Below are positions 6,163 to 25,609 of a DNA stretch of 64,000 nucleotides, one piece after another. Origin of the DNA: an uncultured delta proteobacterium (GTDB lineage: Bacteria > Desulfobacterota > Binatia > DP-6); the NCBI GenBank assembly GCA_963815115.1, contig CAWFFN010000007.1:1152001-1216000 (forward strand), given 5' to 3'. How positions within the stretch are numbered: position 1 is the first letter of the stretch; each line of letters begins with the position of its first letter. A program made the position numbers and the translations under genes. The notes beneath the pieces are model-generated. The model was not told the DNA's origin. It worked only from the letters and a program-made list of their open reading frames with translations, and did not search any database.

Positions 6163-6166
<4 letters not shown>
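4964..6166 (+). CDS. DUF4255/Pvc16 (Afp16) tail terminator-cap with C-terminal IPT/TIG-like domains
   Basis: MSNALAIAAVTATL, LNIFLYQ..NAAWRN, PPLALNLHYLITAY, ELSKLWTAFQTQYRISAAYEV; C-terminal YFVRLRVDGVDS. Confidence 0.92.
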
Positions 6167-8372
<2,206 letters not shown>

Positions 8373-8376
<4 letters not shown>

Positions 8377-8672
8377 ACATCACGGTCCACATCGAACGCT
8401 TGGTGCTGCACGACCTGCCCGCGACGAGCGCTCGGGGTCCGCTCGTGCAAGCCGGCGTCGAAGCCGAGCTGACGCGCCTGCTCGCCGAGCGCGGGCTGGA
8501 CCCCGGGCCCATCCGCGCCGTCCCCTACCTCTCGGCTGGCATCATCGAGCTGGGCGAGCACGGCAAGCCCGCACAGCTCGGGCAACAAATCGCCCGCGCC
8601 GTTCACGGAGCTCTCACGCCGGCCCCAGCCCTGCCGCGTCGGCCTCCCGCGAGCCGAGGAGCGCGCGGGTGA
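8373..8672 (+). CDS. Small conserved eCIS-associated protein
   Basis: MNITVHIERLVLHDL...VEAELTRLL...LGQQIARAVH; ATGA overlap with the ATPase. Confidence 0.75.
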
Positions 8673-9580
8673 CGGCACGACAGGTCGTGCCGGGCCGGCG
8701 TGTGGCGGCAGTCCCTCCCTCGCTCACCCCCGTGCGCACGGGACTCCCGCAGAAGTGCGCCTGCGGCTTCGGGTCCCGCCCGGGCGGCCAATGCCGGGAG
8801 TGCGGCGAGAAACGGTCGCCGTTACGGCAGCGTGCCGTCGGACCAGCATCGGCATCGACCATGGAGGCACTGCCTGCCTCTCGCCACGCGGTGGGCTCGG
8901 CCGGCCAGGGACGGGACGCGAACCAACGCCGGTTCGTGCCGTCACGCTTCGGATACGATCTCAGCCGCATAGTCGCCCGCCATCATGTGCCGCGAGGCGA
9001 CCCAGCGAAGGCGGTCGGTATCGCGCCCGAGCAAGAGGAAGGCCCGAAGCCTTCACCCAGGAACGGGAGCGCGAGCATTCAATGCGATGGCGCTGGCGGA
9101 TACGAGATCACCTATGGCACGTGGGCAGGCGCGACCTGTGGCACCAAAGGCTGTGTGACCATTCACGAGAGCTCTCACATGGCCGACTGGAAAGGGAAAT
9201 GGCCGACCGGGTGCAAGGGACAACCCAGGGGATACGTGCCCAAGGGTGATCCTCCGGACAACCCGTTGATGACGGTTGCCGAGTACGACGCCTTCCTCAA
9301 GGAGAGCGAATGCAAAGCGCACACGGTCGACCTTGCGTGTGCGGAGGGACTCGCCAAGCCACCCGGGTGCGAGGCCACGGTCGATGACTACGTCAAGCTC
9401 ACGCGAGAGCAAAAGGCGAAATGGTGTCCGACCTCCAGGGCGGCGAAGGTAGCGGCCGGCCTGGCCGGCGGCGCGCTCGCCGGAGCGGGCATCGGGGCGC
9501 TGGCGGGTGGGCCAGCCGGTGCGGCGATCGGTGCCGGCATCGGTGCGCTGGTCGGCGGAATCGCCGGGGCATTTCTCTAG
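8669..9580 (+). CDS. Putative eCIS effector 1: CAC..CxxC leader, vestigial DUF4157 motif, Cys-rich HExxH domain, C-terminal glycine zipper
   Basis: QKCACG...CRECG; RFGYDLSRI; IHESSH...ECKAH; AAGLAGGALAGAGIGALAGGPAGAAIGAGIGALVGGIAG. Confidence 0.75.
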   Translation: MTARQVVPGRRVAAVPPSLTPVRTGLPQKCACGFGSRPGGQCRECGEKRSPLRQRAVGPASASTMEALPASRHAVGSAGQGRDANQRRFVPSRFGYDLSRIVARHHVPRGDPAKAVGIAPEQEEGPKPSPRNGSASIQCDGAGGYEITYGTWAGATCGTKGCVTIHESSHMADWKGKWPTGCKGQPRGYVPKGDPPDNPLMTVAEYDAFLKESECKAHTVDLACAEGLAKPPGCEATVDDYVKLTREQKAKWCPTSRAAKVAAGLAGGALAGAGIGALAGGPAGAAIGAGIGALVGGIAGAFL

Positions 9581-9595
9581 TTTGGTCGACTCACA

Positions 9596-9814
9596 ATGAC
9601 GAAGGAGAAAGCGGTCGGGCTCGCGTCACGGTTCGCGGAGCAGCAAGGATATGATCCCCGCCAATACGACACGACGGCATCCAAAACGGCGGCTGAATGG
9701 ACGATACACTTTCAGCGCAAGAGCACGCTCACAAAACCACGACCAGGAGATTTCTTCACCGTCTACGTGAACGACCACTCGGGGACGGTTGAACGGATCA
9801 CCCATGGGAAATGA
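9596..9814 (+). CDS. Small partner protein, possible immunity/inhibitor (PepSY/NTF2-like alpha-beta pattern)
   Basis: 72 aa, 15 bp after effector 1; helix (KEKAVGLASRFA) then strands WTIHF...FFTVYVNDHSGTV. Confidence 0.55.
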   Translation: MTKEKAVGLASRFAEQQGYDPRQYDTTASKTAAEWTIHFQRKSTLTKPRPGDFFTVYVNDHSGTVERITHGK

Positions 9815-9891
9815 ACTCGACACCCGAACGACCAGGTGCAATCCACGGTGGCCGGCATCGAGCGCGCACCGGCTCAGAAGGGATGTGAACG

Positions 9892-10551
9892 GTGAGTACC
9901 TTTCCGGGCTCTCCTCGCCTGCTCAAGGGCGGCATCGTGCTGATCGATCCGGACAGCAGTGCGGTGCAGCGCATCATCGCGTTGCAGTACAATCCGGACA
10001 CCCTCACCCGCACCTTGCAAGTGAAGGCGTTCACGGGGGATAGCGGCGATCGGTCGGAGGCGTTGCGCATCAAGGGGCCCCCGGTCGAGACCCTCAAGCT
10101 CGACGCGGAGATCGACGCGACCGATCAGTTGGAGTTCCCCGATCAGAACCCGAACGCCACCCAGTTTGGTGTCGCGCCCCAGCTCGCCGCGCTGGAGACG
10201 ATCCTGTACCCGACCAGCAGCCAGCTTCTGGCCAACAACGCACTGGCGCAATCGGGCACGCTGGAAATCGTGCCGATGCAGGCGCCGTTGACGCTCTTCA
10301 TCTGGAGCAAGAATCGCATTCTCCCGGTACGCCTGACGGAATTCAGCATCACCGAGGAAGCGTTTGATCCCGCGCTCAATCCAATTCGCGCCAAGGTCAG
10401 TTTCGGGATGCGCGTTCTCAGCGTTGACGACCTGGGCTTCGAGCACAAAGGCGGGAATCTCTTCATGATCTATCTCCAGGCCAAAGAGCGGCTCGCCTCG
10501 GTCAGCCAGGGAGGGGCCTTCGGTACCCTCGGCATCACGGGCATCCCATGA
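9892..10551 (+). CDS. CIS tube-initiator-like protein (Afp7 N-domain)
   Basis: LQYNPDTLTRTL, PLTLFIWSKNRILPVRLTEFSITEEAFDPALNPIRAKV. Confidence 0.85.
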   Translation: MSTFPGSPRLLKGGIVLIDPDSSAVQRIIALQYNPDTLTRTLQVKAFTGDSGDRSEALRIKGPPVETLKLDAEIDATDQLEFPDQNPNATQFGVAPQLAALETILYPTSSQLLANNALAQSGTLEIVPMQAPLTLFIWSKNRILPVRLTEFSITEEAFDPALNPIRAKVSFGMRVLSVDDLGFEHKGGNLFMIYLQAKERLASVSQGGAFGTLGITGIP

Positions 10552-10868
10552 GCGCGAACACCCTTCCACCGGCAAGCCGCTACTACAACGTGGAGACCGC
10601 GACGCTCGAAACCACAGGCGCCAAGACCGTCATCTACCTGCGCCGTCGCTTCGTGCCGGCGCCCGATCGCTTTGTCCTGTTGCAGGAACACATCGTCACA
10701 CAGGGCGACCGATTGGACAACATCACCGCCACGTATCTCGGTGACCCGGAACAGTTCTGGCGCGTGTGCGACGCCAATGCGGCGATGCGACCCGAGGAGC
10801 TGACGGATACCGTTGGCCGCCGATTGCGCATCACGCTGCCCGAAGGGATTCCCGGCCAGACCTCATGA
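10548..10868 (+). CDS. LysM-domain baseplate protein (gp53/P2 X-like)
   Basis: HIVTQGDRLDNITATYLGDPEQFWRVCDAN. Confidence 0.9.
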   Translation: MSANTLPPASRYYNVETATLETTGAKTVIYLRRRFVPAPDRFVLLQEHIVTQGDRLDNITATYLGDPEQFWRVCDANAAMRPEELTDTVGRRLRITLPEGIPGQTS

Positions 10869-11989
10869 ATGCGGCCTTCCATCTCACCCTGCTCGTCGGA
10901 CCGGTCGTTCCGGTGCCGGCGCCGCAGGTCGTGCTCGACGCGTTGACCGGCGTGCAGGTCACCAGCAACACCGACGGGCCGAGCGGCTTTCAGCTCACCT
11001 TCACGCTGAGCAACAAGTCGCCCTTGCAGACGATCTTCCTGGTGGCGGCGGGCCAGACCCCGATGCTCCGGGTGATCATCATCATGACGCTCAATGGCGC
11101 GCCGCAGGTGCTCATGGACGGCGTCATGACGCGCAACGACATCTCACCGGGGAGTCAACCTGGCGAGTCGACCCTGACGGTCACCGGCGAGGATCTGACC
11201 AAGGCCATGGACCTGATCGACTTCACCGGGATTCCGTACCCGGCGATGCCGGTCGAGGCTCGTGTGGCGCTCATCGTCGCCAAGTATGCCGTCTTCGGCA
11301 TGGTCCCGCTGGTCGTCCCGACGTTGTTTCCCGACGTCCCGATTCCCATCGAACGCTACCCGACGCACAAAGGCACCGATCTCAAGTATCTTCGTCAGCT
11401 TGCGGCGGAGGCCGGCTACGTCTTCTACGTCGACCCGGGGCCGGCACCTGGAGTGAACATCGCCTACTGGGGACCCGAGATCAAGGTCGGCGTACCACAG
11501 CCCGCCCTGAATCTCGATATGGACGCGCACACCAACGTCCAGTCGCTGACGTTCAACTTCAACACCGCGAATACCACGTTGCCGATCGTCTACATTCAGA
11601 ATCAGCTGACCAAGGTGCCGATTCCGATTCCCATTCCGAATGTGAATCCGTTGCAGCCGCCGTTGGGTGTGATCCCCGCACCGATCACCAACGTGACGGT
11701 GCTGCGCGAGACGGCGAAGCTGTCGCCCATGGCCGCCGTCATGCGCGGCTTGGCGGAGGCGTCGCGCTCCGCTGACGCGGTCTCCGGCTCGGGCACTCTC
11801 GATGTCGTCCGCTATGGCCGGATGCTGAAGGCGCGGAGCTTGGTGGGCGTCCGGGGCGTCGGCATGGCGTACGACGGTCTCTACTTCGTGAAGAGCGTGA
11901 CCAGCACGATCAAGCGCGGCGAGTTCAAGCAAAACTTCAACCTGACGCGCAACGGCCTGGTGTCGATCACACCTGCGGTGCCCGCATGA
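10865..11989 (+). CDS. Baseplate hub protein (gp27/late control D-like, VgrG N-part)
   Basis: Position between LysM and gp5 genes; TDLKYLRQLAAEAGYVFYV, GLYFVKSVTSTI; ATGA-coupled. Confidence 0.8.
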   Translation: MNAAFHLTLLVGPVVPVPAPQVVLDALTGVQVTSNTDGPSGFQLTFTLSNKSPLQTIFLVAAGQTPMLRVIIIMTLNGAPQVLMDGVMTRNDISPGSQPGESTLTVTGEDLTKAMDLIDFTGIPYPAMPVEARVALIVAKYAVFGMVPLVVPTLFPDVPIPIERYPTHKGTDLKYLRQLAAEAGYVFYVDPGPAPGVNIAYWGPEIKVGVPQPALNLDMDAHTNVQSLTFNFNTANTTLPIVYIQNQLTKVPIPIPIPNVNPLQPPLGVIPAPITNVTVLRETAKLSPMAAVMRGLAEASRSADAVSGSGTLDVVRYGRMLKARSLVGVRGVGMAYDGLYFVKSVTSTIKRGEFKQNFNLTRNGLVSITPAVPA

Positions 11990-12498
11990 CAGAGAAGCAC
12001 TACGGCAAGTACCGCGGCATGGTGCTCAACAACGTCGACCCGATGCAGATAGGCCGCCTGCAGGTCCAGGTGCCGGACGTTGCCGGGCTCATCCCGTCGT
12101 CGTGGGCAATGCCGTGCTTCCCGGTGACCGGCAAACAGATGGGCATGTGGTCGATTCCGCAGATCGGCACGGGGGTGTGGGTCGAGTTCGAGCAGGGCGA
12201 TGCCGACTATCCCATCTGGAGCGGCTGCTGGTTTGGCTCGGCAGCAGAAGTCCCCGCCATCGCCATGCTGACGCAGCCGCCCCTGTCGAGCTTCGTCCTG
12301 CAGACGGCGACGCAACACGTGCTCCAGCTGAGCGACCTGCCCGGCCCGACCGGCGGCATCCTCCTGAAGACGCCCCTCGGGGCATTCATCTCCATCAACG
12401 ACACGACCGGGATCACGATCTCCGATGGCAAGGGCGGAATGATCAACATGATCGGCGGTGTCGTCACCGTCAACCAGGGCGCGCTCTTGATCAAGTAG
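11986..12498 (+). CDS. Spike protein, gp5/gpV OB-fold (VgrG C-part)
   Basis: YGKYRGMV..NVDP...GRLQVQVP, WAMPC.P, PQIGTGVWVEFEQGD..YPIWSG. Confidence 0.92.
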   Translation: MTEKHYGKYRGMVLNNVDPMQIGRLQVQVPDVAGLIPSSWAMPCFPVTGKQMGMWSIPQIGTGVWVEFEQGDADYPIWSGCWFGSAAEVPAIAMLTQPPLSSFVLQTATQHVLQLSDLPGPTGGILLKTPLGAFISINDTTGITISDGKGGMINMIGGVVTVNQGALLIK

Positions 12499-12517
12499 CG
12501 GCGAGGCGGGACCAGGA

Positions 12518-12841
12518 ATGCCGGGATTCCTACTGCATGTCGGTGCGCAGGTGCAGTGCGCACATGCCGGTCAGGCGCAACCGACCGTCCCGAACCCGCG
12601 CGTGCTGGTCAGCGGGCAGCCCACCGTGACCATCACCGGGCCCTACGTCGTCGCGGGATGCACGCTGCCGCCGCCGCCGGCTGCCAATGGCCCCTGCGTC
12701 ACCGCACAGTGGATGACCGGCGCCACGCGCGTCCTGTCCAACGGCCAGCCGCTGTTGCTGCTGGACAGCCAGGCCCTGTGCGCTCCGACCGGCACCCCTT
12801 TGCTCATCGTGGTGACCCAGACGCGCGTCACCGGCATGTGA
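12518..12841 (+). CDS. PAAR-like (DUF4280-type) spike tip
   Basis: LHVGAQVQCAHAG, RVLVSGQP, GCT..PC, W..GATRVL.NGQPLL. Confidence 0.85.
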   Translation: MPGFLLHVGAQVQCAHAGQAQPTVPNPRVLVSGQPTVTITGPYVVAGCTLPPPPAANGPCVTAQWMTGATRVLSNGQPLLLLDSQALCAPTGTPLLIVVTQTRVTGM

Positions 12842-12848
12842 GGCTCCG

Positions 12849-13211
12849 ATGAACATCGATTTCCCCTTTCATTTTGACGCCCGGGGCTGCACGGCCACCA
12901 CTGATGACGATGACCACATTCGCGACATGATCGAGGAGTTTCTCTTCACGAGCTCCGGCGAACGCGTGAACCGCCCGGACTTTGGCAGCGGCCTCCTGCA
13001 GATGGTGTTCGCCCCCAACAGCCCAGAGCTCGCCGCGACGCTGCAGTTCACCATCCAGGCCGGGCTCCAGCGGTGGCTCGGCGACGTCATCGACGTGCAA
13101 AAGCTGGAGGTGACCAGTGAAGATTCGACCCTGCGCATCATCGTCCAGTACGTCGTCCGGGGTACGAGCGAGCAGCGCACCGAAACGTTCGTGAGCGGCG
13201 GATCGGCATGA
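12849..13211 (+). CDS. GPW/gp25 baseplate wedge protein
   Basis: HIRDMIEEFLFT..GERVNRPDFGSGL. Confidence 0.93.
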   Translation: MNIDFPFHFDARGCTATTDDDDHIRDMIEEFLFTSSGERVNRPDFGSGLLQMVFAPNSPELAATLQFTIQAGLQRWLGDVIDVQKLEVTSEDSTLRIIVQYVVRGTSEQRTETFVSGGSA

Positions 13212-15865
13212 GTGGCCCCTCTCTCGCTTGCCAGGACGAACGGCGACGCAGAAGCGCCCGCGAATCGGGCCGAAGCGGCATTGACTACGTCGAAGTGCAT
13301 GACGTCGCTCAGCTCACGCTCTGCGTCCACCTGTTCGGCCCGATCCCCGAGCGGATCGATGCGGCGAGCGTCCGCATCGAGGGGGGGCGCCGCATCCGCG
13401 ATGTCCGGGTCATCGACGTGGAGCTCGACCACCCGCCCGACACCGACGCCGATCCGTGCGTCCTGGTCAGGGTCAACAAGGCCGGAGACTCGCTCTACAC
13501 CCTCGCGCTCGTCGAGGCGAAGGATGGCCGGCCTACAGACACCCCGTTGACCGGCTTCGATCCGCGGTATGCCCGCGTCCAGTTCAGCTTCAAGGTGGAC
13601 TGCCCGAGTGATCTGGACTGCAGGACCGACCCGGTATGCCCGCCGGCCGTGCGCGACGAACCGGAAATCAACTACCTGGCCAAGGACTACGGCAGCTTCC
13701 GCCAGCTCATCCTCGATCGCCTCGCGCTGGTCATGCCGGGGTGGAGAGAGCGCCATGTGCCGGATATCGGCATCGCGCTGGTCGAGCTTCTCGCGTATGT
13801 CGGCGACCACCTCAGCTACTATCAGGACGCCGTCGCGACCGAGGCATATCTCGACACGGCCCGGCAGCGCATTTCCGTGCGCCGCCATGCGCGGCTGGTG
13901 AACTACCAGCTCCACGAGGGCTGCAACGCCCGCGCCTGGGTGACCGTGTGGACGGATCAGGACGTCATCGACCCGTCGCTGAAGCTGCGGGACATCCACT
14001 TCACCACCGGCGACGGCGATGGCGCGCGCGAGGTGTTCGAGCCGCTGCCCACCACGACCGATACGCCGCTCGAGCTCTACGTCGCGCACGACACGATCTC
14101 CTTCTACACGTGGGGCGACGAGGAGTGCTGCCTGCCGCGCGGTGCGACCGCGGCGACGCTCAAGGACGGCTGGCGAGTCGAGGAACACCCTGCACCGGAG
14201 CAACCTCCTGCAAGCGCGCAGAGCGTCCCGCCGCAGCCAGCCGCCGGGGAGTGCCCGGCGCCCGCTCCGGAGCCACCGCAGCCGCCGCGCAGCCTTCGCC
14301 TGAAGAAGGGTGACGTCCTCATCTTCGAGGAAGTGATCGGTCCGAAGACGGGTGACCCCGCGGATGCCGATCCAACCCGCCGCCATGTCGTGCGCCTGGT
14401 GAAGGTCACGCCGGGCGAGGATCCCCTCTTCAAGCAGGCGATTCCCGGATCCGAGGAAGAGTGGCCAACGCCCATCCTGGAGATCGAGTGGGCCGCCGAG
14501 GATGCGCTGCCATTTCCCTTGTGCATCTCTGCCAGGCTGCCCGCACCAGAATGTACGTTCGTTGAAGACATCAGCGTCGCCCACGGCAACGTCCTGCTGG
14601 TCGATCACGGCCGGACGCTCGAGCCCGAGCCGCTCGGCCAGGTGGGAGTCCGGACGGTCGTCGGGCAGTGCGAGTGCGAAGGCAGCCCGGTCGATTTCGC
14701 GTATCTGCCCGAGCCGTTTCGTCCCGACGCGCTCGAGCAAGTCCCCCTCACCTACCGCCAGAGACTCCCACACGGCTCACCGCCGGCTCGCGATCTGCTC
14801 GATCAGGATCCCCGCAAGGCGCTGCCCCAGATCACGCTCACCGGATTGCCCGGCACCTGTCCCGAGCCCGGAGATACGGGAGAACCGACACCGCGCGAAG
14901 GAATCGATCCCGAAGATCCGGAGTGGAGCTGGATCCCGCAATCCGACCTCCTGGCCAGCCGGAGCCAGGACCAGCACTTCGTCGTGGAGACGGACAACGA
15001 CGGCGCTGCCCATCTCCGCTTCGGCGACGGCGAGCTGGGTCGAATGCCCGACGCCTGCATGATCTTCACGGCACGCTATCGGGTGGGAAACGGACCGGCA
15101 GGCAACGTCCCTGCAGACACCATCACCGAAGCGGCCTTCCGCTCGACGACCGTCAGCGGCCCGACGCTCCGGCCGCGCAATCCACTGCCGGCGCGCGGTG
15201 GCACCGCGCCCGAGCCGACAAGCGAGGCCAAGCTGTTTGCGCCGCGGGCATTCCAGAAGACACTCCGACGGGCGATCACCGCCGACGACTACGCTCGGCT
15301 GGCCGAGCGCAATCCAAGGGTCGAGATACAGCGCGCGGGAGCGTCGCTGCGCTGGACGGGCAGCTGGTACGCCGCGCAGGTCGCGATCGACCCGCTCGGC
15401 AGCGAGACCGCGGCCCGCCAGCAGCTCGACCAAAGCGCCGGCTATCTGCACCGCTACCGGCGTGCCGGTCATGACCTGGAAGTACGGCCTGCGCGCTACG
15501 TCCCGCTGAAGATCGAGTTGGCCGTCTGCGTCCTGCCCCACTATCTGCGCGGGCACGTCGAGGCGGCATTGCTCGAGGTCCTCGGCACGCACGACCTCGC
15601 CGACGGCCGGCGCGGCTTCTTCCATCCCGACAACTTGACGTTCGGCGAGGGCATCTACCTCAGCAAGCTCCTCGCGGCCGCACAGGCCGTGACCGGCGTG
15701 GAGAGCGTCCGGGTGACCACCTTCCAGCGTCTTGGCGAAGGCGACAACGGAGAGATCGACAACGGAATCTTGCCGCTCGGTCCCTTCGAGATCGCACAAT
15801 TGGACAATGACCCCAGCTTCCCGGAACACGGCACGCTGAAGTTGACGATGGGAGGCGGGCGATGA
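13208..15865 (+). CDS. Baseplate J-like protein (Afp11-like) 1
   Basis: INYLAKDYGSFRQLILDRL, YYQDAVATEAYL.TAR, RFGDGELG, RAITADDY. Confidence 0.92.
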   Translation: MSGPSLACQDERRRRSARESGRSGIDYVEVHDVAQLTLCVHLFGPIPERIDAASVRIEGGRRIRDVRVIDVELDHPPDTDADPCVLVRVNKAGDSLYTLALVEAKDGRPTDTPLTGFDPRYARVQFSFKVDCPSDLDCRTDPVCPPAVRDEPEINYLAKDYGSFRQLILDRLALVMPGWRERHVPDIGIALVELLAYVGDHLSYYQDAVATEAYLDTARQRISVRRHARLVNYQLHEGCNARAWVTVWTDQDVIDPSLKLRDIHFTTGDGDGAREVFEPLPTTTDTPLELYVAHDTISFYTWGDEECCLPRGATAATLKDGWRVEEHPAPEQPPASAQSVPPQPAAGECPAPAPEPPQPPRSLRLKKGDVLIFEEVIGPKTGDPADADPTRRHVVRLVKVTPGEDPLFKQAIPGSEEEWPTPILEIEWAAEDALPFPLCISARLPAPECTFVEDISVAHGNVLLVDHGRTLEPEPLGQVGVRTVVGQCECEGSPVDFAYLPEPFRPDALEQVPLTYRQRLPHGSPPARDLLDQDPRKALPQITLTGLPGTCPEPGDTGEPTPREGIDPEDPEWSWIPQSDLLASRSQDQHFVVETDNDGAAHLRFGDGELGRMPDACMIFTARYRVGNGPAGNVPADTITEAAFRSTTVSGPTLRPRNPLPARGGTAPEPTSEAKLFAPRAFQKTLRRAITADDYARLAERNPRVEIQRAGASLRWTGSWYAAQVAIDPLGSETAARQQLDQSAGYLHRYRRAGHDLEVRPARYVPLKIELAVCVLPHYLRGHVEAALLEVLGTHDLADGRRGFFHPDNLTFGEGIYLSKLLAAAQAVTGVESVRVTTFQRLGEGDNGEIDNGILPLGPFEIAQLDNDPSFPEHGTLKLTMGGGR

Positions 15866-18800: not shown

Positions 18801-19281
18801 CGCCTTCGGCGATCCGTACCTGCCAGTCCGGGTCGACGTGCGCGAGCTCCTCGCGCTGGTCATCAGCGCGAACGTCCAGGTCCTTCCCGACTACCAGTTG
18901 GAGACGGTCGAGCCGCTGATCCGCGCAACCCTCCTCGACACGTTCGGCTTTCAACGCCGCGACCTGGGACAGAACGTCTACCTGAGCGAGGTCGTCGCGA
19001 CGATCCAACGGGTCACCGGCGTAGCCTACGTCGACGTGGACGTCCTCAGCAGCATCTCGGAAACCGAACTCTCCACGCCCGCCCTCCTCGCCGAGAAGCT
19101 GCAGGCCCTGACCGCGAGCTCCAAACCGGAGTCCTGCGTGCCCGTCTACCTGGCGGAAACGGCCGCGCAAGCGCAGCAACACAGACCCACGTCTCCCGGG
19201 ACCACGATCTACCCCGCTCAGCTGGCGTTCCTCATTCCCGATGTGCCTGCCACGCTGATCCTCAACGAGGTGCAGGCATGA
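15862..19281 (+). CDS. Baseplate J-like protein 2
   Basis: NRPGLPALSYRVGTH, LTFYQERLANEGYLRTATERRS, YGNVAKATHGET, RLVSTQDYADFAR. Confidence 0.9.
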   Translation: MSVPCGCCAGTEVLTPLTTANRPGLPALSYRVGTHATFLETMKARLSSFYLEIPEDALDAFGRQKLSRIYPLRDLKTRSPDDPAIAWLDAWATVGAVLTFYQERLANEGYLRTATERRSILELARLIGYVLRPGVASTVYLAYSLDEDRSVTPPKPTAVTIPAGARAQSVPGPGELPQSFETADSLDARSPWNNLQARLTQPQTEDSIENREDLDPDMLGPRIYLKGIGTNLKLNDPLLVQFGTDDPVLFRVLDVQPDAAADRTLVRLEEWTAQPATAALAQAVGESLGRYRLAVQTLNVGNLKIVKSIAPALHALEAHLTTAQPVETLMTSVQTLTTIVSSQLPAARKHARHAQLVPLLDGLALELGGATQLLATSKSGAAPGASATSKAVIDRNELLGPLLKPASVPPASSAVLGRDPREAFVAKADTGLQLLGALQPRLSDALPVALANAKTTPSSTIKAFAFRVKSAPFGNGAPKRTRFDRKSDEVAVIGEWPIQEWTVVPNPDGATITDALPHEEPGVLYLEASYDGIMAGSVSNPSWIVIDAGAWTMPTAGSFRVSPENLPKLVTTAVDVKAGVSRADYGISGKTTRIKLGDPWLRIDTTEPDTSVQLQDLYDNDFRVLRALTIYAQSEELLLAEEPITDDVCGGKKDPIELDGLYDGLKSGRWLIVSGERTDIENDAGVTVPGVKASELVMIAKVTQDVKSVNAGVGSDTGEDVMEVLPGDRIHSFVYLAEDLAYCYKRDTVTVYGNVAKATHGETRSEVLGGGDGSKSLQQFPLRQPPLTFVPAPNPAGVDSTLQVRVNDVLWHETDSLAALLPTDRNFITRTDDDGKTRVIFGTGTHGARLPTGQENVKAVYRNGIGKPGNAKADQISLLATRPLGVKAVTNPIRASGGADKESRDQARQNAPLAVMALDRLVSTQDYADFARTFAGIGKASATRLSDGHRQLVHVTIAGADDIPIEPSSDLYRNLLKALRAFGDPYLPVRVDVRELLALVISANVQVLPDYQLETVEPLIRATLLDTFGFQRRDLGQNVYLSEVVATIQRVTGVAYVDVDVLSSISETELSTPALLAEKLQALTASSKPESCVPVYLAETAAQAQQHRPTSPGTTIYPAQLAFLIPDVPATLILNEVQA

Positions 19282-21590
19282 CCCGGCCTGACCGCCTGTA
19301 CGAGTTGCTGCCAGTCGTCTATCGACTGCGCGACGCGCGGCAAGGCTACCCGTTGCGGGGCCTGCTCCAGGTGATCGCCGAACAGGTGGACGTGGTCGAG
19401 CGTGACATCGCGCAGCTGTACGAGAATTGGTTCATCGAGACCTGCGAAGACTGGGTGGTGCCGTACATTGGCGACCTGATCGGCTATCGCCCGGTGCACG
19501 AAGCCGGCGAGCCAGGCGACCCGCGTCTGCCGCAAGGGCGCGCGTTGAACAAGATACTCATCCCGCGCCGCGAGATCGCCGGGACGATCGCCCATCGGAG
19601 TCAAAAGGGTGCGCTGGCGCTGCTGGAGCTGCTCGCCAACGACGTGGCGGGCTGGCCGGCGCGCGCGGTCGAGTTCTACAAGCGGCTCGGCTGGACCCAG
19701 CACCTCGATCATCAACGGCCACACCGCGGAGGAACCATCGACCTGCGGCACACCGGGGCGCTGGACGTCCTCGATGGACCGTTCGACGGGTTCGCGCACA
19801 CGGTGGACGTGCGCCGCGTCGATGCTCACCGGACGGTCGGCCGCTACGACATCCCCAGCATCGGCGTCTTCGTCTGGCGATTGAGATCATACTCGGTCGG
19901 CTGGAGCGACGCAGAGGCAAACGAGTGGAAATCACCGGTCGGTCTCACGGCAGCGAGCTGTGTCGAGGAGGCAGGCCCGCATTGCTACACCTTCAGCGTG
20001 CTCGGCAACGACACGCCGTTGTACAATCGCCCGCAGCCCGAGAGTGACCCGACCCACATCGCAGGCGAGCTGAATCTCCCGACTTCGATCCGCCGCCAGG
20101 CGTTTGCGAAACGCGTGGCCAATGGCGGATCGGACTACACGGAAGCTTCGCCGGCGTACTACGGTCCGGGCAAGAGCGTGGCGGTCTGGGCGCCCGATTG
20201 GCCGAAGAAGGGTGCCGAGCAGCCGGTTCCGGCGACCAGCATCATCCCGGCCAACCTGAGCGGCTGGCACTATCAATCCCCACGTAACCACCTCGCCATC
20301 GATCCGGAGACGGGGCGCATGGTCTTCCCCGGCACGCAATTGCCGAGGCAGGGCGTGCGGGTCGTCTACCACTATGCCTTCAGCGCGGACATCGGCGGTG
20401 GCGACTATGAGCGGACACTGTCGCAGCCGATCGATCACAAGCTGTACCGGGTAGCCCAGGGCAAGGAGGGCTACTTCGACAGCATCAAGGCGGCGCTGGA
20501 CCAATGGGCGCACGACAAGGCGGGACTTGCTCCGCCCGCACCGGCGGCCGGGGATTCGACGCTACTCTCCGCAGTCATCGAGATCGCGGACAGCGCCGTG
20601 TACACCGATGCGCTCAACCTGCGGCTGCAGGTGAACGAGAGCCTCCAGATTCGCGCTGCCAATCGCGTCCGGCCCATCGTCCGCCTGCTGGACTACATGG
20701 CAGACATGCCCGATGCCCTGAGCATCGGTGGCGACAAGGGCAGCCGCCTGACGTTGGACGGATTGCTGATCACGGGCCGTGGCGTTCAGGTGTCGGGGCC
20801 GGAGGTCGATCCCGACGGCGCAGAGCCCGAACGCCCTGGCGATTTGTGCACCGTGACGATCCGCCACTGCACGCTGGTACCGGGCTGGGCCCTGCACTGC
20901 GATTGCGAGCCAAAACGATCCACCGAGCCGAGCCTCACGCTCCTCAGCACCGGCGCGCACGTCGTCATCGAGCACAGCATCGTCGGGGCGATCGAGGTCA
21001 CCGCTGACCACGCGACCACCGACCCGGTGCGCATCGACGTCAGTGACAGCATCTGGGATGCCACCAGCGACGAGCGGGATGCATTGAGCGGGCCCGATTG
21101 CGCCACCGCCTATGCCCGCCTCTGCATCGTGCGCAGCACGGTGCTCGGGCGGATCGCGCCCCATGAAATATCCCTGGCGGAGAACTGCATCTTCAGCGGC
21201 CCGATCCGAGTCGCACGCCGTCAAACGGGCTGCCTGCGCTTCTGCTACGTCCCGCCCGACTCGCGCACTCCGCGCCGCTACGAATGCCAGCCCGACCTCC
21301 TGGACCGGGCGGTCGAGGAACGCTTCCCCGCCGGCTCGGCGCGCGAACGGGCGAGGAGCAACGAGCGACTGCGCGTGGAGCCCGAATTCAACAGCACGCG
21401 CTACGGCACGCCGACGTACTGCCAGCTCGCAGACACCTGCGCCGAGGAGATCAAGCGCGGCGCCGAGGACGAGTCGGAGATGGGCGCGTTTCACGACCTG
21501 TATCAGCCACAGCGGGCCGCCAATCTGCGCGCCCGCCTCGACGAGTACACGCCCGCCGGAATGGACGCGGGCATCATCTACGTAGACTGA
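19278..21590 (+). CDS. Baseplate/tail protein (P2 gpI/Afp12-like)
   Basis: LYELLPVVYRLRD, LYENWFIETCEDWVVPYIGDL; C-terminal GAEDESEMGAFH...LRARLDEYTPAG. Confidence 0.85.
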   Translation: MTRPDRLYELLPVVYRLRDARQGYPLRGLLQVIAEQVDVVERDIAQLYENWFIETCEDWVVPYIGDLIGYRPVHEAGEPGDPRLPQGRALNKILIPRREIAGTIAHRSQKGALALLELLANDVAGWPARAVEFYKRLGWTQHLDHQRPHRGGTIDLRHTGALDVLDGPFDGFAHTVDVRRVDAHRTVGRYDIPSIGVFVWRLRSYSVGWSDAEANEWKSPVGLTAASCVEEAGPHCYTFSVLGNDTPLYNRPQPESDPTHIAGELNLPTSIRRQAFAKRVANGGSDYTEASPAYYGPGKSVAVWAPDWPKKGAEQPVPATSIIPANLSGWHYQSPRNHLAIDPETGRMVFPGTQLPRQGVRVVYHYAFSADIGGGDYERTLSQPIDHKLYRVAQGKEGYFDSIKAALDQWAHDKAGLAPPAPAAGDSTLLSAVIEIADSAVYTDALNLRLQVNESLQIRAANRVRPIVRLLDYMADMPDALSIGGDKGSRLTLDGLLITGRGVQVSGPEVDPDGAEPERPGDLCTVTIRHCTLVPGWALHCDCEPKRSTEPSLTLLSTGAHVVIEHSIVGAIEVTADHATTDPVRIDVSDSIWDATSDERDALSGPDCATAYARLCIVRSTVLGRIAPHEISLAENCIFSGPIRVARRQTGCLRFCYVPPDSRTPRRYECQPDLLDRAVEERFPAGSARERARSNERLRVEPEFNSTRYGTPTYCQLADTCAEEIKRGAEDESEMGAFHDLYQPQRAANLRARLDEYTPAGMDAGIIYVD

Positions 21591-21607
21591 ACGAGTCGGA
21601 GGCGCAC

Positions 21608-23014
21608 ATGAGCAACGGCAGTCGACCGAGCGGCCAGGGAGACTTCAGGGGTGACTTCACCCGCGATACATTCGATGCCGCGAAGCGCTTCAGCCGCGTT
21701 TTCATGCAACAGGGCCGCGTTCAGCTCGATGCCGACTGGAACGAGCAGACGTCCATCGTCTTGCACTACCTGCGCTCATTGGCGGCCGATTTGATCGGCC
21801 AGCACGGCGGCCCTGGGGATAGCTTCAAACTCGACACGGTCGTGGTCACCGATGGGACCCTCACCTTCACCGTGACGCCGGGTCGCTACTACGTCGATGG
21901 CATTCTGTGTGAGGCCGGCGACCCCTTCGTCATCGACGAGGCGAGCGTGACGCAGGGTACCAATCTGGTGTTTCTCGACGTCTGGGAACGGCACGTCACC
22001 AGCAACGAAGACCCCGACATCTCCGAGGTCGCGCTGGGCGGCCCCGACACGACGACGCGCGCACAGGTCGTCTGTCACCTCACGGTGCCGACCCTCACGG
22101 ACGACCAGAAGAATGCACTCAAGGCCGCCGATACGGACGCGAAGCTGCGCGCGTTTGCTGACTCGGTACTGGGTGATCTGGGGTCATTCACAAAGCCCAC
22201 CTTGCGCGCCCGGGCGAAGGTCGCCCAACCAATCGAAGCGTGTCACATCTCACCCGAGGCGCAGTACCGCGGCGCGGAGAACCAACTCTACCGCGTCGAG
22301 ATTCACCATGGCGGCGCGGCATGGGATGGGACCATGGACACGGAGAAGGCCCAACCCGTGTTCACCGACGCGACCGCTACCTTCAAGTGGTCACGCGACA
22401 ACGGCTCCGTCGTCTTTCCGGTGCTCGCCCTGAAAGGCAAATCGGTCACGCTGGCCAACCTCGGACGTGACCATCGCCGCACTCTGACCATAGGTGACTG
22501 GGTCGAGGTCGTGGATGACGATCTCGCGTCGCGGGGCCAGCCCGGGGAGCTACGGCAGATCAAGGACGTCAAGACTGACGAGATGACCGTCACGCTGAAT
22601 GAAGAGGTGGATCAGAGCTACGACGAGGCCAGCACGACACATCCTTTGCTTCGCCGCTGGGATCACTCGACCTCGGACGCCCAGCCCGCGGACGGGGCGC
22701 TGCTGTTCAAGGAAGCCGCGGGCGAGGATGACGGCAACTGGATCACGCTGGAGGACGGCGTGCAGATTCAGTTCGCCACCTCCGACGCTGGGGCTCTCTA
22801 CCACGCCGGCGACTACTGGCTCATTCCGGCCAGGGTGGCGACGGGTGACGTCCTGTGGCCCAAGGTTCAGACCGGTGACAAACAGGTCGCGGATGGGAGG
22901 GCACCGCATGGTGTCGAGCATCATTACGCCCCGCTGGCAATCATCGACGTCGCCGGCAGTACGATCAACGTCATCCTCGATCTCCGTCGTACGTTCCCTC
23001 CGCTCGCCACATGA
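21608..23014 (+). CDS. DUF6519-domain protein (fibre-attachment type) with no extended distal domain
   Basis: GDFTRDTFD...QQGRVQLDADWNEQ, ENQLYRVEIH, FKWSRDNGSV, GDYWLIPAR, HHYAPLA, then stop. Confidence 0.85.
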   Translation: MSNGSRPSGQGDFRGDFTRDTFDAAKRFSRVFMQQGRVQLDADWNEQTSIVLHYLRSLAADLIGQHGGPGDSFKLDTVVVTDGTLTFTVTPGRYYVDGILCEAGDPFVIDEASVTQGTNLVFLDVWERHVTSNEDPDISEVALGGPDTTTRAQVVCHLTVPTLTDDQKNALKAADTDAKLRAFADSVLGDLGSFTKPTLRARAKVAQPIEACHISPEAQYRGAENQLYRVEIHHGGAAWDGTMDTEKAQPVFTDATATFKWSRDNGSVVFPVLALKGKSVTLANLGRDHRRTLTIGDWVEVVDDDLASRGQPGELRQIKDVKTDEMTVTLNEEVDQSYDEASTTHPLLRRWDHSTSDAQPADGALLFKEAAGEDDGNWITLEDGVQIQFATSDAGALYHAGDYWLIPARVATGDVLWPKVQTGDKQVADGRAPHGVEHHYAPLAIIDVAGSTINVILDLRRTFPPLAT

Positions 23015-24225
23015 GCCTCGAGCATCTCGATACGGTCATTTCCTTCGTGGTGATCCTTGCGGGCGTCAGCCTGCTCGTCACCACACTGACGCAGATGGCT
23101 TCGGCGCTGCTGGGCTTGCGGGGCACTAACCTCCGCTGGGGGATCACGACCCTGCTCAAGGAGCTGGATCCCGAGCTCAGGGCTTACGCTCCTTCGATCA
23201 GCCAGGCCGTCCTGCACCATCCGCTCATCTCGGATTCCACGTTCTCTCGCTTCGGCGCCCGGCTCCTCGGACGATGGAAGCTGGCCTCGGCGATTCGCAA
23301 GGATGAATTGATCGGAATACTCCACATCCTCGCCGAGTCTCCCCCGGCTGCCGCATCCGGCGCCAACACGGAGACCTGGCAGCCCAAGCTTCGCGACGCG
23401 CTCGAACAGCTCGACCGGGACGCGGCGGGCAGTGTCGTACTGGCCGCGCCGGAGATCCGGAAGCTGTTTCCGGGCGATGCCGACAAGAGCGAGCAGGTGC
23501 TGGCGCAGATGATGACCTCCGCCGAACATGTCTCCGGCACGATCAACGCGTGGTTCGACTCGACGATGGATCGGGTCAAGCAGCGGTTTGCGATGCACGC
23601 CAGGATCTCCACGATCATCTTCTCCGTGGCGATCGCGCTTGCTCTGCACCTGGACGCATTCAAGCTGCTGACGCAGCTCTCCACGGATGCCGAGCTGCGT
23701 GCGCGGCTGATCTCCAGCGCCGACACCCTCGCCAGGAAGGCCGACGAGATCCTCGTGACGTCCCCGAACGCCTCCACGGTCTACGTCGTGGCCATGCAGC
23801 AACTGCTCAGCGATGCGGGGAACGAGCTCGCGGGAGTAGGACAGCCCTCGGGATTCACCGACCTGTCCGGAGGAAAGCAATGGCTGGCGGATCAGCTGAA
23901 GGCCGCCCACATTCACGACCCCGACAAGTGGCTGGCACGGTACGAGGCCCTGGTGCCCCAAGCAGCGCTGCGCACGGCGGCGGACGATTTCCACTCGATC
24001 CTGAACGACAAGCTGAAGTTCCAGCTCATCCCCGATCCCTACCCTTCGCCGATCTACAACTACTGGACGCCGAGCTGGCTTCACCTCTGGGGCGTCGTCG
24101 CGAGCGCCGCTTTGCTGAGCCTGGGAGCACCTTTCTGGTTCAACATGCTCAAGACGCTCAGTAGCCTCCGCCCAGTGGTGGCAAACAAGCAAGAGCAGGA
24201 AGCCGGGGAGGAAGCGAAGACGTGA
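23011..24225 (+). CDS. Polytopic membrane protein coupled to the DUF6519 gene
   Basis: Hydrophobic stretches VISFVVILAGVSLLVTTL, IIFSVAIALALHLDA, LWGVVASAALLSLGAPFWFNML; ATGA overlap. Confidence 0.85.
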   Translation: MSLEHLDTVISFVVILAGVSLLVTTLTQMASALLGLRGTNLRWGITTLLKELDPELRAYAPSISQAVLHHPLISDSTFSRFGARLLGRWKLASAIRKDELIGILHILAESPPAAASGANTETWQPKLRDALEQLDRDAAGSVVLAAPEIRKLFPGDADKSEQVLAQMMTSAEHVSGTINAWFDSTMDRVKQRFAMHARISTIIFSVAIALALHLDAFKLLTQLSTDAELRARLISSADTLARKADEILVTSPNASTVYVVAMQQLLSDAGNELAGVGQPSGFTDLSGGKQWLADQLKAAHIHDPDKWLARYEALVPQAALRTAADDFHSILNDKLKFQLIPDPYPSPIYNYWTPSWLHLWGVVASAALLSLGAPFWFNMLKTLSSLRPVVANKQEQEAGEEAKT

Positions 24226-24508
24226 TTGGCGGACTTTCCCGGAGGCTCGCACGTAGGCCGCCTTGGTTGACGGCACCATGGGCCGTCGCTAGCATCGCGA
24301 GCAAGCGGACGGGTGCTCTCCGCACGTGTGAGAGGTTGCCGTATGCTTCGCAGTCGAACTGCTGGTGTTCACGAGGGCTTGCCGCCTCCTGGCCATCGGG
24401 GGGCGGCGCCCGGAGTCCGTCGCCCTCGAGAGCACGCTTCCGAGACGGCCCCCACGTCCAAGCGCGGGCTTTCGCCGGCTTCCAGCCGAGGAACAGAGAG
24501 CGTACCGA

Positions 24509-25609
24509 ATGAGAATGCAACCACTCAACGCTAAGCCCACGTCGACGCGAGCGCTCCCCTTGTTGCCCGCGCGAGGCCAGTTCCTGCAGCGGAAGTGTGC
24601 GTGTGCGGGGAAGGCCGCCGCAGCCGAGGGCTGCGCGGCGTGCCTCGAGAAGGAGCCGTTGCAACGTCGTGCGATGAGCACAGCTGAGCAAACGGGCGCG
24701 CCGGTCCGCGTGCGTGATGTGCTTCAGTCACGCGGCCAGCCGCTCGATTTGCGCAATCGCGCCTTCATGAAGACCTACTTCGGGCACGACTTCAGCCGCG
24801 TGCGAGTCCACACCGACGCACGAGCTGCAGAGTCTGCGCGGGAAGCCGGCGCGCTGGCATACACGGCCGGGGATCAGATTGTGTTTGGGTCGGGACAATA
24901 TGCGCCGAGATCGCCGAAAGGCATGGAGCTGCTCGCCCACGAGCTCGCCCACGTGATCCAGCAGCGCTCTGGGAGGGTTGTAGCTGAGCATGGAGTCGGC
25001 TCACCGCAAAGCGCTCACGAGCACGAAGCCGATAGTTTCGCTGAACGTGTATCTCGGATGATCTCACAGACGCGTGTCTTCCAAAGGTCCTCCCCTTCCA
25101 CTGTGAATTGCCTCACGAAGGGAGCAAGCGAGGCGGCGGACACGGAGACGTCATTTGAGCCTCCTGATCCGCGCTTCTTGTACCAAAACAACGGCGACAC
25201 GACCTGCAGGTTCCCGGCAGGGACGCCCTCGACCACCATTTCCAACACAGATTGCGCCCGGCCATGCACCGTGAGGCATGAAGGCATCCACAGCGCTGAT
25301 ATTTCTCCGTGCTGCGCTGCCGCCGGGAGGGCACACGCCGCCGCTGCAACGCCCGCGGCCAAGACTGCAGTTGAAGATCGCTTCTTCACGTGGATGGGTA
25401 GCAACCGTAGCTGGTTCGAATGTCGGGCCTATGCAGAAAGCGTCAGATGCGCCGATGGGATGATTACCGCGAAGCATTGTTCGAGTCCGGCGCCGGGTGA
25501 CGCGGCATGCTGCGGGACCCTGGCCTCGTACCGTTCAGACAAGGAGACCCGCCGCGCAAGCAATTGTGCCGCCGCGGCGGCCAACTTGTCTGCCTGTCCC
25601 TTTCCGTAG
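24509..25609 (+). CDS. Putative eCIS effector 2: CAC..CxxC leader, DUF4157 (eCIS core) domain, Cys-rich HExxH C-terminal domain
   Basis: LQRKCACAG..CAAC; GQPLD...FGHDFSRVRVHTD..A.AYTAGDQIVF...LLAHELAHVIQQ; C-terminal VRHEGIH...ECRAY. Confidence 0.88.
   Translation: MRMQPLNAKPTSTRALPLLPARGQFLQRKCACAGKAAAAEGCAACLEKEPLQRRAMSTAEQTGAPVRVRDVLQSRGQPLDLRNRAFMKTYFGHDFSRVRVHTDARAAESAREAGALAYTAGDQIVFGSGQYAPRSPKGMELLAHELAHVIQQRSGRVVAEHGVGSPQSAHEHEADSFAERVSRMISQTRVFQRSSPSTVNCLTKGASEAADTETSFEPPDPRFLYQNNGDTTCRFPAGTPSTTISNTDCARPCTVRHEGIHSADISPCCAAAGRAHAAAATPAAKTAVEDRFFTWMGSNRSWFECRAYAESVRCADGMITAKHCSSPAPGDAACCGTLASYRSDKETRRASNCAAAAANLSACPFP

Follow-up and report, generated by a model that had tools for sequence, protein, structure and literature searches.

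The closest described counterparts of the proteins analyzed here are the AlgoCIS cargo proteins Cgo1 and Cgo2 of Algoriphagus machipongonensis. As described, they combine a disordered N-terminal loading leader, an optional DUF4157 and a variable C-terminal effector domain, their genes lie inside the eCIS cluster, and their loading into the lumen was shown (PMC8894135; bioRxiv 10.64898/2026.05.27.728243). The C-terminal domain of Cgo1 is described with a putative HExxH metalloprotease motif (PMC8894135; bioRxiv 10.64898/2026.05.27.728243), and the inhibition of E. coli growth by Cgo1 is reported to depend neither on a periplasmic tag nor on the HExxH motifs, both of which were point-mutated (PMC8894135). 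A second point of reference is the C-terminal metallopeptidase of VgrG2b, which together with PA0261 represents the Tpe1-Tpi1 family of T6SS effector-immunity pairs, with activity, periplasmic action and immunity binding reported as shown (PMC6899460). Among predicted eCIS toxins, 983 of 1130 are listed as DUF4157 plus nothing annotated (PMC11297309), and many such toxins seemingly lack immunity genes according to Geller et al.

The window, i.e. the whole stretch of 64,000 nucleotides analyzed here, harbors an eCIS locus at about 982-26384, in which genes for sheath, tube, Pvc16_N, AAA, VgrG-like, PAAR-like, gp25 and baseplate J proteins surround two effector genes. The following features are relevant:

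5854..8376, + strand: AAA+ ATPase of the Pvc15/Afp15 type (PF00004, E 7e-25)
8669..9580, + strand: effector 1, with N-terminal leader, Cys-rich HExxH domain and glycine-zipper tail
8669..9040, + strand: leader of effector 1, with a Q-K-C-x-C-G ... C-x-x-C motif
9041..9433, + strand: Cys-rich HExxH domain 1, residues 125-255 of effector 1
9434..9580, + strand: glycine-zipper-like hydrophobic tail of effector 1, about 48 aa
9596..9814, + strand: 72-aa ORF, partner of the 8-Cys clade and candidate immunity protein
9892..10551, + strand: CIS tube protein (PF19266, E 3.7e-7; synteny), downstream edge of the cargo slot
24509..25609, + strand: effector 2, 366 aa from ATG 24509, with leader, DUF4157 and Cys-rich HExxH domain
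24740..24973, + strand: DUF4157/eCIS_core domain of effector 2 (PF13699, E 3.6e-30), residues 126-203
25148..25606, + strand: Cys-rich HExxH domain 2, residues 262-414 of the 414-aa frame
25821..26384, + strand: 187-aa protein belonging to no known family, the 12-Cys clade partner, directly downstream of effector 2

The succession of leader, DUF4157 and C-terminal domain resembles the AlgoCIS lumen cargo, the likeness to the Cgo1 C-terminal domain being one of description only. Unlike the AlgoCIS cargo as described, effector 1 is devoid of DUF4157 and each effector is followed by a conserved downstream partner; lumen loading, shown for Cgo1 and Cgo2, is deduced here from the genes. A leader joined to an effector C-terminal domain and a gene inside the eCIS cluster are the build of eCIS lumen cargo, and by analogy both proteins may be loaded. 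With VgrG2b/PA0261 the two pairs would share a HExxH effector, delivery by a contractile system and an adjacent cognate immunity gene, but the VgrG2b domain is reported to be related to DUF4157 and the Cys-rich domain is not. When the latter was compared with DUF4157, hhalign aligned only the 10 HExxH columns, with a probability of 1.9%. We consider it fairly probable that both proteins are injected eCIS effectors ending in a metal-dependent hydrolase domain, each with a cognate partner.

Effector 1 (303 aa, 8-Cys clade) starts with a GTG, in a 4-nt overlap with the stop of the small gene preceding it, and its 73 homologues, all named hypothetical, are 62-85% identical in the domain. Effector 2 (12-Cys clade) has a longest frame of 414 aa (24365-25609, + strand), with the start probably at ATG 24509, as the protein database entry is the 366-aa form. 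The DUF4157 of effector 2 carries a HExxH of its own and is the sole PF13699 match in the genome. DUF4157 had been taken as the mark of cargo for both proteins, which holds for effector 2; the Pfam search gave no PF13699 match in effector 1, where only the first strand-like piece is present and the leader alone is common to both (BLASTP of the two leaders, E 4e-5). The leader Cys motif, as defined by our own pattern, recurs in 100 of 231 homologues, and PF13699 is found in 14 of 134 representatives and in 7 of the 10 longest. The AAA+ ATPase, whose start is uncertain because its ORF overlaps the Pvc16_N gene, is the likely cargo loader.

Both reading frames, together with the motif strings and positions given in the initial annotation, are present in the translations, including His-to-Glu spacings of 48 residues in effector 1 (9164 to 9308) and 47 in effector 2 (25277 to 25418). 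HExxH lies at 9164-9178 in domain 1, with an Asp three residues past the second His, Glu at 9308-9310 and eight conserved Cys, and at 25277-25291 in domain 2, with Glu at 25418-25420 and twelve Cys. By themselves, the two sequences resemble each other hardly more than by chance, since BLASTP of the C-terminal domains returns a single HSP of 23 residues (E 0.043). Alignment of the two families by hhalign nevertheless covers 90 columns at 95% probability (E 3.6e-8), a mixed alignment contains 13 invariant columns, and a mixed profile recovers 675 clusters at 50% identity (E<=1e-3, 1.84 billion representatives). This bears out the proposal that the domains are diverged paralogues of one unrecognized Cys-rich family. 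Searches of Pfam, NCBIfam, PHROG and PDB sequences gave no match covering the Cys-rich domain, neither the window proteins nor 134 representatives have it covered by a Pfam or NCBIfam family, and the superfamily profile has no match among PDB chains at E<=10. At the level of sequence, the Cys-rich HExxH domain is an undescribed superfamily with two clades, termed 8-Cys and 12-Cys.

Conservation was evaluated across 148 aligned members, with residues numbered as in 9041-9433 of the window. H42, E43, H46, C15 and C58 are present in all 148, D49 in 145, and E90 in 145, the other three carrying Gln. The further cysteines are likewise nearly invariant (C38, C91 and C129 in 147 of 148 each, C100 in 145, C110 in 144). 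Of 231 proteins matching our motif pattern, 228 have a His-to-Glu spacing of 39 to 50 residues, with 150 at 47 or 48. In a third paralogue Gln replaces the Asp, which counts against a hydrolase. Four disulfides in the 8-Cys clade and six in the 12-Cys clade are probable; paired Cys losses (C91 with C129, C38 with C100, and C33 with C110 twice, the last pair also in the divergent member at locus L011) support them, and the single or ambiguous losses in five of the nine aligned sequences missing a conserved Cys count against them.

AlphaFold2 models were obtained with high scores for domain 1 (pLDDT 95.3, pTM 0.88) and domain 2 (pLDDT 95.8, pTM 0.88), and their predicted topology is common to both, as anticipated: a small beta-sheet, then one helix carrying HExxH, another carrying the Glu, and a last one at the C-terminus. 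Two or three beta-strands precede the HExxH helix (residues 35-53 in model 1, 38-65 in model 2) and the Glu helix (79-102 and 87-108, respectively). Gluzincins, including minimal "minigluzincins", also place HExxH on a helix and Glu on a later helix, and a small beta-sheet precedes the helix of the active site. In some gluzincins an Asp three residues past the second His is common as well. The Cys-rich domain differs from them in having no match to a zincin profile or, for domain 1, to a zincin fold, four to six probable disulfides and only two or three strands. The expectation that Foldseek would reveal a zincin fold was not borne out for domain 1: the PDB search gave no zincin or other significant match (0 at E<=0.001; best E 2.4, TM at most 0.41), the sole zincin in the list is the botulinum neurotoxin light chain (TM 0.27), and BFVD returned nothing. 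As the initial annotation had presumed, there is no match to an already characterized family, by profile or, for domain 1, by fold. Metalloprotease chemistry is plausible from the motif and from helix placement in the models; the reported independence of Cgo1 toxicity from its HExxH motifs counts against it.

The models also bear on a related reading, in which the domain would hydrolyze a non-peptide envelope substrate (phospholipid, lipid II or lipoprotein anchor, peptidoglycan) in a metal-dependent manner, on a disulfide-braced helical scaffold resembling secreted phospholipase A2. In outline, secreted PLA2 is of similar size, is similarly rich in Cys and likewise has two long antiparallel helices that are cross-linked and bear the conserved acid and His. 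Rice PLA2 appears in the domain 1 Foldseek list at ranks 8 and 50 (TM 0.33-0.41), and phmmer gives a faint match of effector 2 to pancreatic PLA2 (E 2.3). Membrane tethers and, in one member, a PG_binding_1 domain (E 1e-14) that interrupts the loop leading to the last helix point to the envelope, and DUF4157-PLA2G12 fusions are reported among predicted eCIS toxins (PMC11297309). Every PLA2 signal is, however, far from significant and disappears when the search is made with just the domain or with the superfamily profile; Pfam PLA2 families give no match, and the His-Asp dyad and calcium loop are absent as such, making this reading quite unlikely.

The tail of effector 1, kept in most close homologues, is probably a membrane-inserting hairpin. 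It resembles the Gly-zipper_YMGG and 2TM families and glycine-zipper membrane toxins, although its score against Gly-zipper_YMGG (PF13441, E 0.0011, 19.1 bits) is under the 28.9-bit gathering cut-off; many close homologues carry precomputed PF13441 labels. One could picture a toxin that kills through membrane insertion or depolarization by the zipper, or by the helical domain itself, with HExxH as a structural metal site or binding module. A zipper hairpin ends effector 1 and its close relatives and sits inside the domain in another subclade, membrane-depolarizing glycine-zipper toxins are reported for T7SS and T6SS, and the toxicity of Cgo1 is described as independent of its HExxH motifs (PMC8894135). 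In contrast to glycine-zipper toxins, the zipper is here an optional addition to the Cys-rich domain, found by our criterion in 16 of 150 representatives (7 at the C-terminus, 9 in the loop before the last helix); 130 are zipper-free, yet keep H-E-x-x-H, Asp and Glu, and effector 2 has none. A catalytic-type Glu beside the first His in all 148 aligned members is, moreover, hard to square with a purely structural site, and we regard membrane insertion as an unlikely mode of killing.

For the hydrolase effectors that we favor, the strongest evidence of toxin identity comes from two conserved partner genes, both overlooked in the initial annotation. The 72-aa ORF, absent from that annotation, is matched at 8 of 8 other loci by a homologous ORF that comes right after the 8-Cys gene in the same orientation (9 of 9 with the window), and wherever sequence beyond the 12-Cys gene is available (7 of 7 loci, window included) the 187-aa partner comes next. 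Both partners are single-copy in the genome, each beside its toxin, and the two families are unrelated to each other; partner identity drops along with toxin identity (55-28% versus 83-36%). As in effector-immunity pairs, a cognate small gene is conserved immediately downstream across distant loci. Signal peptides are absent from the small partner at 8 of 9 loci and from the 187-aa partner in 4 of 5 homologues, which suits an antidote or chaperone acting in the cytoplasm better than one in the periplasm. Starting the 187-aa partner at an in-frame GTG further upstream (25632) would give it a signal-peptide-like extension, but only here and in one 93%-identical relative. Tpe1-Tpi1 immunity homologues are described as periplasmic proteins or lipoproteins (PMC6899460), comparable to the L011 partner with its lipoprotein-like signal. 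Judging from gene order, the two effectors are likely injected toxins of a new family, with the clade-specific partners as their probable antidotes.

Genomic contexts agree with the placement of both effectors within an eCIS locus, and relatives occur in eCIS loci of other phyla. Of 9 genome loci with an 8-Cys gene, 5 are eCIS loci, and in each of these the gene sits between those for AAA and CIS_tube. A 12-Cys gene fills this slot at 4 of 6 metagenome loci, and the remaining two are contigs of about 2 kb. Such a fixed slot in a structural operon, between ATPase and tube genes, would also suit a non-toxic accessory or lumen component (plug, length or loading factor) with the downstream gene as its assembly chaperone. 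The 8-Cys domain is as conserved as structural proteins (73% identity in Almyronema versus 78% for the tube), its 69-83% identity across phyla is unusually high for a toxin and counts against one, and the partners appear cytoplasmic. Either clade, however, fills the slot interchangeably, and a search of 300 other genomes sampled in the same phylum did not turn up the domain. It is also present away from any detected eCIS gene (L003, L009, L010). At L011 a VgrG gene (Phage_GPD, E 8e-81) is immediately followed by one for a PAAR protein (PF05488, E 3e-6) that ends in a divergent member, so that the family extends beyond the eCIS delivery first proposed. On a Ca. Methanoperedens contig, the domain is 70% identical and the tube, sheath and ATPase only 30-40%, a gap indicating that the domain moves as a cassette; by sequence comparison this suggests that cargo has been exchanged between Bacteria and Archaea. 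A non-toxic component is, on balance, very unlikely.

The preferred reading would have both proteins loaded as cargo and injected by the eCIS at about 982-26384, each by a disordered N-terminal loading leader to which effector 2 adds DUF4157. The C-terminal domain of about 120-150 aa (small beta-sheet, H-E-x-x-H-x-x-D helix, E-C-x-A-[Y/H] helix, C-terminal helix) would bind a metal, probably zinc, and use it for hydrolysis, most likely of peptide bonds. Its site of action may be the target cell envelope, as hinted by the lipoprotein-like signal of the L011 partner, the PG_binding_1 insert and the glycine zippers, with some lineages membrane-tethered via the zipper. The producer would be protected from effector 1 by the 72-aa ORF product and from effector 2 by the 187-aa protein, each neutralizing or chaperoning its domain. 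A bolder version, which we hold to be rather doubtful, posits a redox-gated minimal zinc hydrolase of new fold on a toxin-antidote cassette that is passed from one contractile system to another (eCIS, T6SS) and from Bacteria to Archaea or back. The four to six disulfides of the domain could not form in the producer cytoplasm, where the small cognate protein would hold the inactive domain; threaded unfolded into the tube, it would fold and become active only in the oxidizing target envelope, where the glycine zipper or an insert that binds peptidoglycan would position it.

Among the unannotated C-terminal domains of eCIS toxins, one can now be named, as a large superfamily with two clades and confident models, and two new partner families are added as candidate immunity proteins. 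These findings bear on what environmental eCIS carry as payloads, on whether they target bacteria, and on how producers protect themselves.

[quoted passage not shown] Two effectors with a C-terminal Cys-rich HExxH domain and their neighbors are positioned within it as follows (window coordinates).

8669-9580, plus strand, effector 1 ORF, 303 aa
9041-9433, domain 1
9596-9814, 72-aa ORF, beginning sixteen bases past effector 1
24365-25609, plus strand, effector 2 ORF as translated
25148-25606, domain 2
25821-26384, 187-aa partner, 3' of effector 2 and unrelated to the small partner

Translations of both ORFs agree exactly with the effector sequences quoted in the initial annotation, and its placement of the first His and the Glu in each effector (four positions) is right by arithmetic on these translations. 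Effector 2 probably starts at 24509, because its protein database entry is a 366-aa form. The GTG start of effector 1 and the stop of a small gene preceding it overlap by 4 nt (GTGA). Most of a listed 351-aa ORF (7617-8672) overlaps the AAA gene out of frame; the true gene, at ~8376-8672, probably encodes ~100 aa from a start close to the ATPase stop. Its translation is coupled to that of effector 1, and its position ahead of the cargo slot is conserved. The longest AAA ORF (5854-8376) overlaps the Pvc16_N gene (4964-6166) by ~300 nt, and the ATPase start probably lies near 6163. Directly past the locus, the product of 26535-27371 (278 aa) weakly matches the adenylate/guanylate cyclase domain (PF00211, E 2.7e-5).

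Pairwise BLASTP between the C-terminal parts of the two effectors yields a lone 23-residue HSP (E 0.043), and the N-terminal leaders match better (E 4e-5). Close relatives amount to 73 proteins at 62-85% identity for effector 1 and 22 proteins at 33-100% identity for effector 2, the window's own protein counted; every named one is labelled hypothetical. When their profiles are compared by hhalign, the families match over 90 columns (probability 95%, E 3.6e-8), and 13 invariant columns remain in their mixed alignment, bearing out the initial proposal of a domain common to both effectors. A profile of this alignment retrieved 675 clusters at E≤1e-3, 292 of them at E≤1e-10, from 1.84 billion representatives. 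Among 148 aligned members (residue numbering of domain 1), H42, E43, H46, C15 and C58 are found in all, C38, C91 and C129 in 147, D49, E90 and C100 in 145 (the E90 exceptions being three Gln) and C110 in 144, while position 94 is Tyr in 121 and His in 24. Profile alignment, family profile and residue conservation together identify effectors 1 and 2 as old paralogues.

The family divides into two clades in the topology of a midpoint-rooted FastTree phylogeny (143 trimmed columns, all 148 rows): an 8-Cys clade including effector 1, with a Trp right after the conserved Asp, and a 12-Cys clade including effector 2, in which that position is aliphatic and two further Cys-Cys pairs are present. A third, more distant paralogue (E 3.6e-9) lies on another contig of the same genome (contig 9, 1140343-1140918; 1447-2214 of the retrieved locus L003); it carries Gln instead of Asp after HExxH, a Cys leader like that of the effectors and a remnant of the first strand of DUF4157 (PF13699, eCIS_core). 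No eCIS gene is found near this copy and neither partner family adjoins it; its flanks encode an MBOAT-like membrane protein and a Cys-rich secreted protein. By our own pattern, the N-terminal motif Q-[RK]-x-C-x-C-G ... C-x-x-C occurs in all three paralogues and in 100 of 231 homologues, in the effectors within otherwise disordered leaders (8669-8810 and 24509-24700). This motif may be a small metal knuckle and belong to the loading signal of the window's eCIS lineage. Other members, for example from Methanoperedens and Korobacteraceae, have a different leader, L-Q-R-x-x-G-N. None of 7998 candidates was a longer fused form of the domain, a result that carries little weight.

The domain had been described as unrecognised, and this holds: Pfam, NCBIfam and PHROGs contain nothing that matches it, whether in the window proteins or across 134 representatives; single-sequence and profile searches of PDB sequences were likewise negative, and the 134-sequence profile retrieved 0 chains at E≤10. 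A diverged DUF4157 is ruled out, as hhalign covers only the ten HExxH columns (probability 1.9%). ESM Atlas returned only eCIS_core neighbors for one homologue (P0026), all sub-threshold. A description of the domain was not found in the published literature, of which the supplementary toxin tables of PMC8213781 and PMC11297309 may include members.

AF2 models of domain 1 (pLDDT 95.3, pTM 0.88) and domain 2 (pLDDT 95.8, pTM 0.88) show elements in identical order, in line with the expectation of a common fold.

Predicted elements of the two domains (AF2, domain numbering)
Strands: domain 1, 11-15 and 21-24; domain 2, 11-13, 16-21 and 26-31
Short helix: domain 1, 26-30; domain 2, none
HExxH helix: domain 1, 35-53, bearing HExxH and Asp; domain 2, 38-65
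Between HExxH and Glu helices: domain 1, long loop; domain 2, helix 69-85
Glu helix: domain 1, 79-102, bearing E-C-x-A-H; domain 2, 87-108
C-terminal helix: domain 1, 111-128; domain 2, 116-142

The long inter-helix loop of the 8-Cys clade thus corresponds to a helix in the 12-Cys clade. Neither PDB (best E 2.4, TM ≤0.41) nor BFVD (best E 1.2) yielded a significant Foldseek match for model 1, so that the zincin fold sought with AlphaFold and Foldseek was not recovered for this model. Of the metalloprotease claim, the location of HExxH and Glu on helices stands in the models, whereas a zincin match by fold (model 1) or profile does not; membership of any curated zincin family likewise fails on fold (model 1) and profile and agrees only in the motifs on helices. 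A minor rival reading, that the domain is secreted PLA2-like, drew on a faint phmmer match (E 2.3) and on rice PLA2 among the Foldseek entries (TM 0.33-0.41), signals that were gone with the domain alone and with the 134-sequence profile.

The number of Cys is even (8 or 12) in most members. At least one conserved Cys is missing in nine aligned sequences; four of these show joint losses, namely C91 with C129, C38 with C100 and, twice, C33 with C110, and the other five a single or alignment-ambiguous loss. C33 and C110 are both absent from a member fused to a PAAR motif (locus L011). Since joint losses take up three pairs, C15-C58 remains as the fourth. From these sequence patterns we predict, with moderate confidence, four disulfides in 8-Cys and six in 12-Cys domains.

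Both clades have a partner gene of their own. A 60-102-aa homologue of the 72-aa ORF lies directly downstream on the same strand in all eight other real 8-Cys loci (tblastn against the small locus database, E 1e-22 to 3e-4; BLASTP E 2e-7 for the most distant). Compared with the window copy, these homologues range from 56% down to 28% identity, in parallel with a decrease from 83% to 36% in the toxin domain. The 187-aa partner was found in 6/6 other 12-Cys loci with downstream sequence. The window's genome holds one copy of each, adjoining its own effector. Such clade-specific, strictly linked partners bear the signature of effector-immunity pairs or dedicated chaperones. Pfam holds no family for either partner, and a PDB profile search with the small one gave no meaningful match. 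A PepSY-like nature of the 72-aa partner, considered because of its pattern, is left unsupported by PF03413 (E 0.12, one of nine members). Upstream of the 187-aa partner, 25632-25820 forms an in-frame extension with a Sec-signal-like stretch, retained in a 93%-identical metagenome relative (L013) and missing in four more distant homologues. A periplasmic 187-aa partner was not adopted, as this extension from GTG 25632 is missing in 4/5 homologues.

We surveyed nine genome loci of the 8-Cys clade and six metagenome loci of the 12-Cys clade. Five of the nine (two Rubrobacter, Almyronema, Ca. Methanoperedens and an Acidobacteriaceae MAG) are within eCIS loci, with the AAA gene on one side of the 8-Cys gene and CIS_tube on the other, matching the window. 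Outside eCIS are the PAAR fusion and two Korobacteraceae loci, the latter with eCIS genes of this lineage absent from the reachable flanks; a Duganella locus (L012) was rejected as no ORF there encodes the domain. The 12-Cys gene occupies the AAA-CIS_tube slot in 4/6 loci, the other two contigs being ~2 kb. As genes of both clades occupy the same slot, we regard it as a cargo bay that takes either. Both clades are present in the window and in the Methanoperedens contig, where the domain is 70% identical to that of the window and tube, sheath and ATPase 30-40%; these sequence identities indicate that the cargo cassette, and not the machine as a whole, was transferred. Upstream of its AAA gene, that archaeal eCIS (L007:1-3445) has three consecutive cargo genes: one for a DUF4157 protein whose C-terminal domain is a different one, an 8-Cys gene with small partner and a 12-Cys gene with 187-aa partner. 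Within the phylum of the window, 0/300 other sampled genomes contain the domain.

In L011, a Planctomycetales MAG contig, a PAAR-motif protein (PF05488, E 3e-6, at cut-off) ends in a divergent member of the family, and the preceding gene encodes a full VgrG (Phage_GPD, E 8e-81); the small partner begins 11 bases past the effector stop codon and has an N-terminal lipoprotein-like signal. One representative contains a PG_binding_1 domain (E 1e-14) in the loop preceding the last helix, and a glycine zipper, by our own composition criterion, occurs in 16 of 150, seven C-terminal as in effector 1 and nine in that loop. The loop between Glu helix and last helix is an insertion hot spot (P0181, P0178, P0233, P0210 and P0168), where one cluster has PG_binding_1 and several 12-Cys clusters carry a glycine-zipper segment of 80 residues. 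Lipoprotein-like partner, PG_binding_1 insert and glycine zippers point to the bacterial cell envelope as a probable site of action. Partners in eCIS loci are devoid of signal peptides (8/9 small partners, 4/5 homologues of the large one), which argues against a strictly periplasmic model. An eCIS producer encounters its own toxin in the cytoplasm, before loading; signal-less partners fit this biology, and the domain may therefore be harmful in the producer cytoplasm too.

In the proposed mechanism the leader would, by analogy with AlgoCIS, guide the protein to the AAA+ ATPase and then to the tube lumen, while the partner would hold or block the domain inside the producer. After contraction the domain would fold in the target, where the H-E-x-x-H-x-x-D and E-C-x-A-[Y/H] helices would make a putative metal site to hydrolyse a substrate in the envelope, and the glycine zipper of effector 1 could serve as membrane anchor. 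According to a preprint (bioRxiv 10.64898/2026.05.27.728243) and PMC8894135, AlgoCIS loading needs the N-terminal region but not DUF4157, and cargo is probably unfolded by the ATPase. The AlgoCIS cargo protein Cgo1 is described as being of like build, with its own HExxH in the C-terminal domain; in PMC8894135, its inhibition of E. coli growth is reportedly unchanged by mutating both HExxH motifs. By analogy, this HExxH-independent inhibition is the main caution against the catalytic mechanism proposed here. Closest in working are AlgoCIS cargo and the T6SS metallopeptidase effector-immunity pairs VgrG2b C-ter/PA0261 (Tpe1-Tpi1; PMC6899460). The delivery logic is of a known kind, and the domain itself appears new: it represents a genuine effector-domain superfamily, large and hitherto unannotated, accompanied by two new cognate partner families.
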